Origin: Eledone cirrhosa
Taxonomy: Eukaryota
DNA: 64,000 bases
NCBI GenBank assembly: GCA_964016885.1
Contig: CAXHJY010001730.1
Span: 1-64,000, forward strand
Direction: 5' to 3'
In this document: positions 7,111 to 60,993 of the stretch, piece by piece
Layout: every line of letters starts with the position of its first letter
Position numbering within the stretch: the stretch's first letter is position 1
The notes under the pieces: model-generated
Seen by the model: the letters and a program-made list of their open reading frames with translations, nothing else
Databases searched by the model: none
Told to the model about the DNA's origin: nothing
Program-made: the position numbers and the translations under genes

Positions 7111-7467
7111 ATATACGATATTAACAAATGGAAACTATATTTATAAAACCATATCTATTCTATTATACATATTTCAAGGATACCATGTTAAATTATGGTA
7201 TGCTTTCATCAGACAATATATACCAGATTTATAAATAAATATTGACATACTCTATCAAAATGCAATATTGACATACTCTTTCAAAATGCATACCATAATT
7301 TAACATGGTATCCTTGAAATATGTATAATAGAATAGATATGGTTTTATAAATATAGTTTCCATTTGTTAATATCGTATATTTACTCCAAATACTTGTCGA
7401 GTGCTTTATATCAGTTATAAAAATATTTGCTTGTTGTATCCCAACAATTTAAATAGAACTTTTGCAT
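7111..7467. mobile_element. Fold-back hammerhead-bearing element, family C (Penelope-like pLTR remnant)
   Basis: 93-bp inverted arms 7111-7203 and 7288-7380 with no mismatch seen; right arm continues to about 7467; flanked by (TA)n; related copy at 17815-17995. Confidence 0.75.
7160..7216 (-). ncRNA. Type I hammerhead ribozyme motif (family C)
   Basis: UUGU-CUGAUGA-[AAG C AUACCAU loop AUGGUAU C CUU]-GAA-AUA UG UAU-A-AUAG; long stem II, AUA triplet, weak 4-bp stem I with two G-U pairs. Confidence 0.6.
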
Positions 7468-7744
7468 ATATAAATATATATATTTATATATAAATATATA
7501 TATAAATATATATATATATATTTATATATAAATATATATATAAATATATATATATATATTTATATATAAATATATATATATAATAATATATATATAAATA
7601 TATATATATAAATATATATATATATATATTAATATATAAATATATATATAAATATATATATATAAATATATATATATATATTTATATATAAATATATATA
7701 TATATATTTATATATAAATATATATATAAATATATATATCTATA

Positions 7745-7875
7745 TCCAAAATCCAGATAAATGAAATGAATTTAATCTAAATCAAAATTATGGGTGTCAT
7801 GCCAGAAAGACATGCACCATATCACCCGCAAAATAAGCTCTAAGATTCTAACGAGTAGGTCCGAGCATTTTATAA
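7745..7875 (-). repeat. Unclassified dispersed repeat (family G), related to 50203-50310
   Basis: Reverse complement AAATGCTCGGA..TACT..GAATCTT.GAGC.TATT...CATGACA.CC..ATAATTTT aligns with the 50.2-kb copy. Confidence 0.55.
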
Positions 7876-8317
7876 TAACTAGAAATTGATTAACATATAA
7901 ATAAACATGAATAAACATGAATAATCATATTATAAGGTATCTATTTTTGAAGTTCTGGTCAACTTTATTTAGTTACCTACCTAGCTATTTCATCCTTTTT
8001 TTCTTTATATATATATATATATATATATATATATATATATTATATATATATATATATATATAAAATATTATATCATATATATATATATATGAGGGTTCAA
8101 CACATTTATAAATGAATTAGTATATGTGTAAATATAAGTAAATATAAATCTTTTCATATGGCTCAATGTGTGTTTCTGTGTGTGTGTGCGTACCTGTATG
8201 TGTGTGTATATTTGTACCCCTTCCACCGTTTTCCCTCCCTCCGCCTCCGCCCCTTTTTTTTCTAAATGTCTCTCCACCACTCCTCCACACACCATCGGAA
8301 CTCTCTTCCCACCCTCT

Positions 8318-8350
8318 ATTCTCCCGAAGAAGGGCTTATTCCCGAAATGC
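8318..8350 (+). ncRNA. Degenerate Penelope-type hammerhead (core U4 to C, stem III/I disrupted)
   Basis: CCGAAGA-A-GGG cttatt CCC-GAAATGC resembles the CTGAAGAAGGGCTTATGCCCGAAACG type of Penelope pLTR motif. Confidence 0.4.
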
Positions 8351-8939
8351 CCCCCCCCCACCCACAAGAGCGTGAAACTAATAACTTTGTTTGTACTGCC
8401 TCTCTGTTATGTTCCCGTTCCATTTTTCAGTATATATATATATACTTATATATCTGCTCTTATAAGAGAGAGAGAGAGAGAGAGAGAGAGAGAGAGAGAT
8501 GCGTACGTATATCTACAACCTATCGGGATATCAATCAGTTCAAACCTTTAAGAAAATGTAAATTCTATTGATATAAATATGATTTTCACAGATGTAGGAT
8601 ATCAGTGTGTACATTTCCACACATATCTATGCACACATATACACACATACCTAACCATACTCATATAAAAATACACATATACATAGACATATACACACAC
8701 ACATACGCGAAAAGAAAAGTAAAAGGGGAAAAATCATTATAAACATACTACCTCACACACATACACACATATAAATATATATATATATAGATAGATAGAT
8801 ACACATATATACATACATTCATATATACATACATATATATATATATATACATACATACATCCATATATATACATACAAACGCACATCAATATATATACAT
8901 GTATACACACACACATATATATATACATACACCCACACA

Positions 8940-55915: not shown

Positions 55916-56749
55916 ACACATTGCACGTGTCAAGAATGTATTTTCATATTTACACATCTTCCTGTTTATTGTCACACACATACACACAGAGTGATAGATA
56001 GATACATGTACGTATGTATATATATATATATATATATGTATGAACCTATAGATATATGCATACATATATATATGTGTGTGTGTGATATATATACTGTATA
56101 TACATATTGTGTGTGTCTGTGTGTGCATGTGTGTGTGTACACGTGTGTGTGTAAGCACGAAATAAGTAAAAGATGTATTTATTTATCCACAATTTATCCT
56201 ATTTATCCTCTCCTAATGTCTAATATCAACTGAAGGTCTTGTACTGTGTAATATATAATGCCATCTCCTTACCTCTCATTCTATACCCCCCCCCCCTTTA
56301 TCACTGTCATTCTCTCTCCCTCTCAATCACTTTGTCAATCTCTCTGCTCCTTTCTCGTTCTCTCTCGCCTTCTCTAGATCTTTTAAAAACACTACTTAAA
56401 CAGCTCAGCTCACGCTGGCCTTTACTTCGGCGACTAAGCACCTTCTCAAAGGCAAAAAGCTAACGTAAATGGATATGAAACAGCAATCGCCTTTAAACCT
56501 ATAGATATTTTCTTTCTCTGACAGATTAGCTGGGGCGAATAACATCGTAAAGGCGACTTATATAGGAGCTATTAATGTAATAAGTACATATATATATGAA
56601 TTGTTAATAAATGTTAGCAAATATACAATACATTGAAAATATTCCAAACACTAAATATTAAAATAAATATACATAAAATATTAAAATACCAGATACGTGC
56701 AAATAATGTATGGCTGAACCAATATATGTGGCAACTAGTATATATATTT

Positions 56750-58058
56750 ATATATATATATACATATGTATACATATATTTTATATATGTATACATATAT
56801 CGTATATATGTATAGTATATCGTATATATGTATAGTATATATATATATACATATGTATACATATATCCTATATATGTATAGTATATATATATACATATGT
56901 ATATATATATATACATATATCCCATATATGTATAGTATATATATATATATATATATATATATATATACATATATCCCATATATGTATAGTATATATATAT
57001 ATATATATATATATATATATATACATATATCCTATATATGTATAGTATATATATATACATATGTATACATATATCCCATATATGTATAGTATATATATAT
57101 ATATATACATAAATCCTATATATGTATAGTATATATATATACATATGTATACATATATCCCATATATGTATAGTATATATATATATATATATACATATGT
57201 ATACATATATCCCATATATGTATAGTATATATATATACATATGTATACATATATCCCATATATGTATAGTATATATATATATATATACATATGTATACAT
57301 ATATCCCATATATGTATAGTATATATATATATATATATACATATGTATACATATATCTTATAAATATATATATGTATATACATATATTATATATATACAT
57401 ATATAATATATATATATACATATATAATATCATATATATATATACAAACATTATAAATATATATATATATACATATATGATATATATATATACATATATA
57501 ATATCATATATATATATACAAATATTATATATACATATATATACATATATATAATATATATATATATATATACAAATATTATATATACATATACACCTAT
57601 ACAATATATATATATAAATATATATTACATATATATATACACATATACAATATTATATATATATTATATAATATTATATATATACATATACATATATAAT
57701 ATATATATATATATACACATATATAATATTATATACACATATATATATATAATATATATATATACACATATATAATATTATATATATATACACATAATAT
57801 TATATATATATACACATATATAATATATATATATACACATATATAATATTATATATATAATATTATATATGTGTATATATAATAATATATATATAATAAT
57901 AATATATATATATATATAATAATATATATATATAATATTATATATGTGTATATATAATAATATATATATATATATATAATAATATATATATACATATAAT
58001 AATATATATATACATATATAATAATATAGATACATATATATTAATATATATATACATA
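56750..58058. repeat. TA-rich array including CATATATCCCATATATGTATAG units
   Basis: Direct inspection. Confidence 0.9.
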
Positions 58059-58059
58059 A

Positions 58060-58220
58060 TAATTGTTTCTACTTTTGGCACAAGGCCAGCAATTAACCAG
58101 TGCATTACTGGTACTTTATTTTATCGACCCCGTAAGGATGAACGGCAAAGTCAACCTCGGCGGGATTTGAACTAAGATCGTTAAGGGACCCTCTACCGAT
58201 ACTGCCAATCCACCGCCTTA
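58060..58220 (-). mobile_element. tRNA-derived SINE
   Basis: Reverse complement of the 48796/54022 copies with a head deletion. Confidence 0.9.
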
Positions 58221-60547
58221 TATACATATATAATATATACATATATAATATATACATATAGTAATATATATATATATATATATACATACATATATATACA
58301 TAGATAATAATATATATATATATACATACATATATATACATAGATAATAATATATATATATACATACATATATATACATAGATAATAATATATATATATA
58401 TATACATACATATATATACATAGATAATAATATATATATATATATGCATACATATATATACATAGATAATAATATATATATATATATACATACATATATA
58501 TACATAGATAATAATATATATATATATATACATACATATATATACAAAGATAATAATATATATATATATATATATACATACATATATATACATAGATAAT
58601 AATATATATATATACATACATATATATACATATATAATAATACATATATATATACATACATATATATACATATATAATAATATATATATATATACATACA
58701 TATATATACATATATAATATATATATATATACATACATATATATACATATATAATAATATATATATACATATATAATAATATATATATATACATACATAT
58801 ATATACATATATAATAATATATATATACATATATAATAATATATATATATACATACATATATATACATATATAATAATATATATATATATATATAATATA
58901 TATATATATATATATATATATATATACATATATAATAATATATATATATATATACATACATATATATACATATATAATAATATATATATATATATACATA
59001 CATATATATATATAATAATATATATATATATACATACATATATATACATATATAATAATATATATATATATACATATATATACATATATAATAATATATA
59101 TATATACATATATATACATATATAATAATATATATATATACATATATATACATATATAATAATATATATATACATATATAATAATATATATATATATACA
59201 TACATATATATATACATATATAATAATATATATATACATATATAATATATATATATACATATATAATAATATATATATATATACATACATATATATATAT
59301 ATACATACATATATATACATATATAATTATATATATATATATACATACATATATATACATATATAATTATATATATATATATATACATACATATATATAC
59401 ATATATAATTATATATATATATATATACATACATATATATACATATATAATAATATATATATATACATACATATATATACATATATAATAATATATATAT
59501 ACATACATATATATACATATATAATAATATATATATATACATACATATATATACATATATAATAATATATATATATACATACATATATATACATATATAA
59601 TAATATATATATATACATACATATATATACATATATAATAATATATATATATACATACATATATATACATATATAATAATATATATATATATACATACAT
59701 ATATATACATATATAATAATATATATATATACATATATATATATACATATATAATAATATATATACATACATATATATATATACATACATATATATATAT
59801 ACATATATAATAATATATATACATACATATATAATAATATATATACATACATATATAATAATATATATACATACATATATAATAATATATATACATACAT
59901 ATATAATAATATATATATACATATATATACATACATATATATACATACATATATATACATACATATATATACATATATAATAATATATATATATACATAT
60001 ATATACATACATATATATACATATATAATAATATATATATATACATACATATATATACATATATAAGAACATATATATACATATATAAGAACATATATAT
60101 ATACATACATATATATATACATACATATACATACATATATATACATATATAATAATATATATATATACATACATATATATACATATATAATAATATATAT
60201 ATACATACATATATATACATATATAATAAATATATATATACATATACCCATATATAATAAATATATATATACATACATATACATATATAATAATATATAT
60301 ATATACATACATAATATATATATATACATAACAATATATATATATATACATACATATATACATATACATACATATATATACATATATACATATACATACA
60401 TATATATACATATATAATATATATATATATACATACATATATATACATATATAATATATATATATATACATACATATATATACATATATAATATATATAT
60501 ATATACCTACATATATATACATATATATATATATATATATATATATA
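58221..60547. repeat. TA-rich array with TACATACA and TAATAA motifs
   Basis: Direct inspection. Confidence 0.95.
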
Positions 60548-60993
60548 TATAAGTATGTATACGCACATACATATATGTATACAGACGTACAGTAGTATGT
60601 ATATATATATATATATATATATACATGCACACATATATATAAGTACGTATGGATTCACCGAACATTTATTATAATGCTCGGTGTGTTTGTAAACACACAT
60701 CCCGAATTAAGCCGTACAGTGTCTAGCAACCATCGTTGCTCATTTGTTCAAACCTGACAAAGGAACGCCGTACTAGTTTCAAGCTTATTAGCTATCGTCA
60801 GCAACGTATACCTTCCTGCCAGATGATTGAACGTCTGAAAGTATATACTTTCCTTATGCATATTAACGGCTAAGCAGCCTAATTTGCATATCGAGTGAGT
60901 TAATCGGCCGGGGTACCGAATATATATATATACATACTACTGTACGTCTGTATACATATATGTATGTACGTATACATACTTATATTTAAGTAA
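60548..60993. mobile_element. Family E fold-back element with hammerhead at 60766-60806 (minus)
   Basis: About 60-bp inverted ends (60548-60610, 60920-60984); CGUUG-CUGACGA-U AGCU aaua AGCU U-GAA-ACUAGU-A-CGGCG. Confidence 0.85.

Follow-up and report, generated by a model that had tools for sequence, protein, structure and literature searches.

Hammerhead ribozymes in a TA-rich window of the Eledone cirrhosa genome as probable ends of truncated Penelope-like elements

The window considered here comprises bases 1-64000 of a contig of Eledone cirrhosa (CAXHJY010001730.1, from an assembly of 2,996 Mb in 1,796 contigs) and harbours fifteen hammerhead ribozyme motifs in short carrier sequences. 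The motifs are most probably type I hammerheads of the 3' terminal repeats of Penelope-like elements (PLEs), and their carriers 5'-truncated insertions of at least four coding families and of two tandemly organised units. That the carriers are PLE ends is very likely indeed, and their identity, the rules of their junctions and their bias towards TA repeats are observed in genomic copies. An earlier note, made from the sequence of the window, had linked the motifs to PLEs and to TA arrays, a link that is borne out by the open reading frames (ORFs) upstream of families A, C, D and E and by junctions with (TA)n. This is not a new kind of element, as Hydra PLEs with hammerheads and TA targeting have already been published.

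Hammerhead cores, folds and families

The heptamer CTGANGA occurs 25 times in the window, compared with an average of 14 in shuffles, and a complete CUGANGA...GAAA...UH core is present at all fifteen sites where the earlier note had placed one (Table 1). A strict type I descriptor matches seven times in the window (mean 0.05 and maximum 1 in 100 block shuffles), and a relaxed descriptor, which tolerates a single unpaired nucleotide at either end of stem II, matches ten times (mean 0.01 and maximum 1 in 100 block-wise dinucleotide shuffles), a comparison with shuffled controls that the earlier note had proposed and that favours the motifs. Ten of the fifteen sites satisfy the relaxed descriptor with all three helices and an open-ended helix I, and the remaining five are damaged or truncated copies: the site at 15825 has lost the 5' strand of stem I, as had already been recognised, the first stem I pair is mismatched at 16190, the mismatch is internal to stem I at 49200, and the stem II base is mismatched at 18133 and 41255. 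Judged by their sequence the fifteen motifs are real and have type I hammerhead folds, for which self-cleavage is predicted.

The sites fall into seven families, A to G, in line with the six or more proposed earlier, and the best genomic copies are 92-98% identical to those in the window. Stem covariation, a further check that the note had named, is evident among thirteen E-related motifs, in which both sides have changed in 12 of 22 named pairs, including all seven pairs of lower stem II, with none of 500 shuffles reaching as many; a pairing descriptor selected the aligned motifs, which are also related to each other, so that this shuffle test is inflated and its significance overstated. The same alignment has 92.5% of its cells paired, compared with 33-58% in slid registers. 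Helix III is fully self-complementary in 10 of 18 recurrent variants when it is left unconstrained (shuffle mean 2.0, 0/2000), which is the arrangement required for dimeric cleavage (PMC4209133). Most motifs carry short self-complementary helix III regions that resemble those of canonical Hydra hammerheads, and the description of the motifs as minimal hammerheads, which lack helix III, does not suit the majority of them.

Coding partners and insertion junctions

Longer genomic copies of families A, C, D and E, to which 10 of the 15 sites belong, extend upstream into ORFs for a reverse transcriptase (RT) and a GIY-YIG endonuclease (EN). The carriers of these four families therefore lack ORFs because they are 5'-truncated. 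The earlier view of the carriers as ORF-less holds as a description of the short copies, and that of ORF-less derivatives or retrozymes holds for family B (three sites), F (one) and possibly G (one), and not for the other ten; similarly, the search for RT and GIY-YIG partners that it recommended found them for A, C, D and E and for none of B, F and G. In family A, 10 of 30 loci reach an upstream C-terminal GIY-YIG domain with a CX4CxxC linker by motif reading, and RT motifs lie further upstream in loci L061 and L062. A C-terminal GIY-YIG domain with a CX2-5CxxC linker and CCHH is present (L030, L061), and by the criteria of Craig et al. 2021 (PMC8557442) the motifs of family A are those of a Neptune/Nematis-type PLE. 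It shares with the EN+ PLEs of this type the linker, two cysteines inside GIY-YIG, downstream histidines, the C-terminal EN and TA junctions, although the motif reading does not separate Neptune from Nematis, and in its hammerhead A9 and stem II are separated by an additional base, as in the minimal hammerheads of PLEs (PMC4209133).

Family D is represented by a full-length element, L192, in which two hammerhead repeats, 4,657 bp apart, flank an ORF that carries the Hydra-clade diagnostics RWK, DKT, CxCX5C, CxxC and CxH; RWK and DKT are also found in L365. At least 25 frames of 699-750 aa occur among the 150 protein matches listed (88-100% identity), and the start codon lies approximately 265 nt past C3. 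In family C the end of a Hydra-type ORF is followed by a microsatellite-rich untranslated region (UTR) and the hammerhead (L194), an association that is repeated in L196, and in family E locus L198 combines ORF, UTR and hammerhead with an inverted arm fused where the ORF is truncated. The CxCX5C linker, the absence of CCHH and CxxC with CxH near the EN end were read in C and D, whereas in E the linker was read and the EN end, in a shifted frame, was read by eye. The copies of C and E that were examined are without the N-terminal region that bears RWK and DKT. In pairwise comparison the proteins of C, D and E share 35-49% identity, and they gave no BLASTP match to family A, and on these motifs the three families are Hydra-clade PLEs. 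The 3' UTRs of C and D also hold 1-2 kb of (TA)/(TG) microsatellite (L192:7350-9600, L194:5790-7330, L116, L082), so that a long insertion would bring new target repeats with it.

The remaining families are of different build. Family B is a tandem unit of 433 bp (~430), with tandems in L068-L071 and four head-to-tail units in L068, and family F is a tandem unit of 1,307 bp, two of which are found in L203. Each unit contains one type I hammerhead; tblastn of the B and F units against seven PLE protein pieces gave no match, and the one 130-aa frame of F is dissimilar to the PLE proteins tried. By their sequence organisation B and F are retrozyme-like, resembling the metazoan retrozymes without long terminal repeats (non-LTR) (PMC7229834; Li et al. 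2026 bioRxiv 10.64898/2026.07.22.740005) in their tandems, the single type I hammerhead per unit and the lack of a PLE ORF. They differ in size, B being a borderline case and F lying well outside the ~170-400 nt range of retrozyme monomers, and F is therefore filed only as retrozyme-like. Family G resembles D and forms a 294-bp tandem at one locus, L346.

At their junctions the insertions bear the hallmarks of PLEs. Every family shows two modal 3' ends downstream of the ribozyme, spaced 55-85 nt, and the segment between them, the tail, is in B, D and F the sequence found beyond the repeat in tandem or full-length copies. Pairs of head-to-head arms are present in 109 of 213 loci (104 loci are without a pair), and across the seven families the tail is found on exactly one arm in 101 of the 109 pairs, on both in four and on neither in four, whereas independent arms would give one-tailed pairs in about half. 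One-tailed pairs number 56/62 in families queried without the tail and 45/47 in those queried with it. The tails themselves are partly alike, and the earlier statement that the families share no evident sequence beyond the core has to be withdrawn: those of D and G are 81% identical over 52 nt, while E and F have in common GAAA-TATGTA-T and the tail start TTTACTCC. A GAG(T/C)(A/G)CT-like motif lies approximately 20-35 nt into the tails of C, D, E, F and G but is missing in A; it may serve as a signal for priming or for binding of a protein. The majority of junctions are with (TA)n; in counts that include overlapping loci they number 53/61 and 40/47 for A, 29/34 and 21/25 for E, 20/29 for D, 24/34 for C, and 23/40 and 14/20 for B. 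In B and F the insertions show the full junction anatomy of PLEs (tail, inverted arm and TA target), a further difference from the known retrozymes and direct genomic support for mobilisation by PLEs.

The idea that ribozyme cleavage sets the 5' ends of the insertions was rejected, as only 4 of 221 unselected arms end within 2 nt of the cleavage site, which is about chance; untailed C arms starting there would be undetectably short. Second arms form a pile-up shortly upstream of the core in C (12/17 at -7..-2), D (12/17 at -54..-43) and E (10/20 at -90..-78), and these arms may mirror the selected arm, the pile-up being weaker in bystander copies (C 11/26, D 6/21, E 2/21). Family A 5' ends range from -880 to +170. 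The sequence TATAAAT is found at -36 to -39 in three of four long family C copies, 30 nt above the C pile-up, and an internal promoter has been reported for Drosophila Penelope (PMC2377424). As a putative transcription start the pile-up is supported by sequence for C and weakly for E, with no such support in D and A; run-off, in which the complementary DNA (cDNA) ends at the 5' end of the RNA, accordingly fits C and is unsupported in D, where only three of nine ORF-bearing loci with an upstream hammerhead start at the pile-up. A second, degenerate hammerhead-like string (CTGATGT ... hairpin ... GAAA ... TC) was also noticed some 85 nt above the E hammerhead, at the place of the E 5' pile-up (for example in L175 and, in part, at 7240-7262 of the window).

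Proposed insertion mechanism and rival explanations

It is proposed that the EN would cut TA-rich DNA, by analogy with an Anolis element studied in vitro, and that the RT would prime internally on the RNA from two positions shortly downstream of the ribozyme, one for each broken DNA end. The template RNA would be uncleaved at the ribozyme during priming, and most cDNAs would terminate no more than about 100 nt upstream of the core to give ribozyme-only inserts. New inserts would land in or beside (TA)n, and TA-rich regions such as the window would therefore gather many families. The ribozymes may cleave as dimers via the palindromic helix III and so process tandem transcripts, whereas solo copies would be mostly passive. 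The two-ended priming step is evenly poised between acceptance and doubt and draws on the Anolis element, Poseidon, in which two internal RT start sites delimit the tail and both DNA strands are cut and extended by a protein that is predicted to dimerise (Frangieh et al. 2024, PMC11167929). The B and F tandem units are likely to be copied in trans by the enzymes of the PLE families.

An alternative source of both tails and tandems is a rolling circle, in which hammerheads would trim tandem transcripts to units, the units would circularise and the RT would copy the circle, running round it again. This is a published model (Cervera and de la Pena) with precedent in circular RNAs (PMC4209133, PMC7229834), and the head-to-tail arrangement of B and F, with four and two units at single loci, is what it expects; a religated circle would likewise leave no ends at the cleavage site. 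The B unit folds as a circle at -147 kcal/mol compared with -89 +/- 5 kcal/mol in 30 shuffles, a stability that is owed in part to an AT-rich palindrome and was measured against shuffles that preserved mononucleotides, not dinucleotides. A circle has no 5' end, however, so that a circle alone does not explain why C, D and E each stop at a point of their own just upstream of the core, and hammerhead mutants of the Anolis element still insert normally in vitro (PMC11167929). As an account of the whole the rolling circle is rather unlikely; it is a live one above all for B and F (PMC7761336; bioRxiv 10.64898/2026.07.22.740005). It is improbable that all carriers are dedicated non-autonomous elements, akin to retrozymes or short interspersed elements (SINEs), with short master copies of their own. 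In form this is true of B and F, given the tblastn result, most C, D and G copies begin at a fixed point near the core, and G has its 294-bp tandem, but A, C, D and E extend upstream into ORFs, the 5' ends of A are widely spread and D has many intact long frames. As a general account short masters are refuted by L192, L194, L198 and L030/L062.

Chance matches in DNA rich in AT and in repeats, or an artefact in the assembly of an unplaced contig, would agree with the position of the window at the start of such a contig rich in TA arrays, with an Rfam scan of the window at gathering thresholds that returned no hammerhead match, and with folding z-scores of single motifs that are weak (-1.8 to +0.1). 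The Rfam gathering score is a library threshold and does not define the hammerhead fold, and an Rfam scan by E-value gave only TA-driven microRNA matches among the 150 of 1001 matches listed. The stems covary, the same families occur on many chromosome-scale contigs, and the descriptor matches ten times in the window against 0.01 in shuffles, so that shuffles and genomic copies together refute chance, which has next to no probability left.

The Rfam and folding results, together with the preselection behind the covariation test, also weigh against the interpretation of the motifs as hammerheads of PLE ends, as do the following. Pfam returned only sub-cutoff RVT_1 matches, in two of nine proteins (the A match with E 1.6e-4), and named no GIY-YIG domain among the nine, so that the EN and clade assignments are motif readings. 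The ORF link of family E is a single locus, L198, no autonomous partner was identified for B or F, and none of 12 extended loci of family G had an ORF linked to it. The long end of G abuts (CA)n/(TG)n rather than TA in 8 of 13 cases. One D copy, L366 (G000:C4:175,143,519), with a 715-aa frame, begins at +45, no more than 2 nt from the cleavage site, and is the only clear example of a full-length insert that could derive from cleaved RNA.

If the PLE interpretation is carried further, the one-tailed-arm rule may reflect a general PLE mechanism in which a protein dimer primes the two ends of a double-strand break in (TA)n, a generalisation that is offered tentatively. The rule would arise from two RT start sites on the RNA, and the ribozyme-only inserts would be run-off copies to the 5' end of the transcript, which is conceivable, with the balance somewhat against it. 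The same machinery might copy ORF-less retrozymes as well and account for some 10^5 intact hammerheads in more than 20 families, some of them in host transcripts, an extension that is, in turn, more doubtful than not. The tail of PLEs and its one-sidedness have been described qualitatively (PMC3846280, PMC8557442; PMC6155905 served as background only). A literature search outside most subscription journals found no statement of two-ended priming for PLEs and no survey of cephalopod hammerheads, and in the available portion of a 2026 repeat annotation of Octopus vulgaris (PMC13282606) the words hammerhead and ribozyme are absent.

The window, genomic abundance and known systems

The carriers and remnants of the window are collected in Table 1. 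Beyond the fifteen sites, four remnants without a full core were found. About half of the window is low-complexity sequence, and (TA)5+ tracts make up 22% of it, compared with 4.4% of random genome stretches.

Table 1. Hammerhead carriers and related features of the window (positions in the window; C3 and H17, ribozyme core positions)
Feature	Position	Strand	C3	H17	Remarks
Family E (Hydra PLE) 3' end, untailed arm	7112..7262	-	7212	7164	ORF link via L198
Family E inverted tailed arm	7285..7491	+			truncated within hammerhead, no CUGAUGA
Family A (Neptune/Nematis-like PLE) 3' end	13327..13579	-	13522	13488	diverged copy
Family C-related head-to-head pair	15769..15877	.	15825 (+ arm)		+ arm without 5' stem I strand; - arm with changed core
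Family D (Hydra PLE) 3' end, tailed arm	15961..16150	-	16111	16065	full-length relative L192
Family D inverted, untailed arm	16151..16275	+	16190		mismatch in first stem I pair
Family C (Hydra PLE) 3' end, tailed arm	17136..17271	-	17265	17227	ORF link via L194
Family C inverted, untailed arm	17274..17340	+	17280	17318	
Family E-related inverted remnant	17791..17999	.			no full core; not listed in the earlier note
Family F, 5'-truncated piece of 1,307-bp tandem unit	18010..18446	-	18133	18070	
Family F palindromic 5' junction	18374-18446				
Family A old copy	21865..22058	+	21916	21950	78% identical
Family B, tailed monomer of 433-bp tandem unit	24865..25260	-	25173	25143	
Family C-related inverted remnant	40827..40911	.			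decayed cores; not listed in the earlier note
Family G tailed 3' end	41095..41275	-	41255	41200	D-related
Family B subfamily copy	49150..49513	+	49200	49230	one stem I mismatch
Family A tailed arm	49527..49841	-	49779	49745	
Family A inverted, untailed arm	49842..50190	+	49998	50032	
Family B untailed monomer	60511..60920	-	60801	60771	
Match to family B low-complexity 3' end	60511-60560	-			short
GAG(T/C)(A/G)CT-like tail motif	15990-16010, 17165-17185, 41120-41135				examples

Four other CTGANGA candidates were rejected as hammerhead sites. That at 36432(-), a CTGAAGA with a helix III-like hairpin, is without stem I and has only one other genomic copy; that at 26269(-) was unmatched among the genomic loci fetched; and those at 45694(-) and 55581(+) lie inside coding fragments of non-LTR elements. 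These fragments (45231-45770 and 55549-55912), the source of two of the CTGANGA matches, resemble what we take to be the restriction-like endonuclease end of CRE/NeSL-type non-LTR elements. Other repeats include a dispersed repeat of about 190 bp with 80-94% identity, likely a SINE (1188-1926 in tandem, 48797-48985, 52950-53119, 54020-54220, 55101-55279 and 58049-58234), and three copies of another repeat with 85-96% identity (39510-40581, 42624-43698 and 52210-52894), each split by or joined to TA tracts. Tandem arrays have units of 108 bp (30105-30660, inside a coding end resembling a long interspersed element), 45/90 bp (34362-34764) and 17 bp (36217-36407), the last of which begins inside the hairpin beside the rejected CTGAAGA and has a flank with one other copy, at 83629 of the same contig.

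The families of the window are found on many chromosome-scale contigs, and a first look at the genome gave candidates for A (at least 2210), B (at least 819), C (at least 802), D (at least 1649), E (at least 1220), F (at least 3094) and G (at least 1655), figures that set minima and do not give copy numbers. The relaxed descriptor, applied to 60 random 10-kb stretches, picked out 42 motifs, 14 in one array and 28 dispersed, compared with 0-1 in each of ten shuffles. As the stretches were drawn from 26 large contigs by lower-bound lengths and cover 0.02% of the genome, the number of dispersed intact motifs genome-wide, approximately 1.4x10^5 (95% interval 0.9-2.0x10^5), is an extrapolation. The density of one motif per 4 kb given in the earlier note applies locally, the descriptor density in the random stretches being about one per 21 kb; with 10 matches in 64 kb the window lies 3.3-fold above the genome background (P 0.001). 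Among the 60 random loci the motif matches per locus rise with the number of TA tracts (rho 0.45, p 0.0003). The 426 descriptor matches in 319 loci, overlaps kept, form 21 clusters of at least two and 16 singletons. Contigs of three runs compared with family B gave thousands of variants in one and 9 and 12 low-depth contigs in the others, and are not used as evidence of spread.

Among published counts, a coral has more than 6,000, mussel about 5,000 and the axolotl as many as 120,000 retrozyme copies (PMC7229834), and the coelacanth has about 4,000 and Xenopus about 9,000 (PMC4209133). The motif count of E. cirrhosa is high yet within the known range. Elsewhere in the genome a tandem array of a 628-bp unit was seen, with 29 copies over about 19 kb (L279, L353; G000:C9 ~17,233,500-17,251,800). 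Its units in L279 have, from the second copy on, a type I hammerhead that is intact and has a stable helix III of 7-8 bp, and the array is a large retrozyme-like satellite. It has no match to the PLE proteins tried and no copy in the 1 kb before or the 20 kb after the array.

Families C, D and E share with the Hydra-clade PLEs of PMC8557442 the protein motifs (RWK and DKT in D; the CxCX5C linker with CxxC/CxH at the EN end in all three), a C-terminal GIY-YIG domain, a canonical type I hammerhead close to the 3' end whose short helix III is self-complementary, the targeting of (TA)n, and inverted 5'-truncated arms with a one-sided tail. Hydra-1_Obim of Octopus bimaculoides is already listed there with a hammerhead and a (TA)n preference; no hammerhead here is identical by eye to the motif listed for Hydra-1_oBim. 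The differences are that several families at 35-49% protein identity are found here, compared with one Octopus family listed in that paper, that the tails measure 55-85 nt rather than 30-40, and that the D unit at L192 has 4.66 kb owing to its long microsatellite-rich 3' UTR, whereas elements of this clade are generally below 3 kb. Poseidon of Anolis (PMC11167929) is alike in its AT-rich targets, in having two fixed ends downstream of the hammerhead that define the tail and in having no ends at the cleavage site; unlike Poseidon, the elements described here have ribozyme and tail in a non-coding 5' region, and the one-tailed rule has been counted over seven families.

For the annotation of such genomes the results carry a warning, as many short 'unknown' repeats in TA arrays are PLE ends. 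The genome of E. cirrhosa yields young, intact Hydra-clade PLEs (family D, approximately 714 aa) together with over 20 covarying hammerhead families that form a natural panel within a single genome. Two questions, the purpose of the hammerhead in PLEs and the mobilisation of retrozymes by PLE enzymes, are thereby made testable, and the tail, inverted-arm and TA signature of the autonomous families at the junctions of B and F is evidence that the latter question had lacked.

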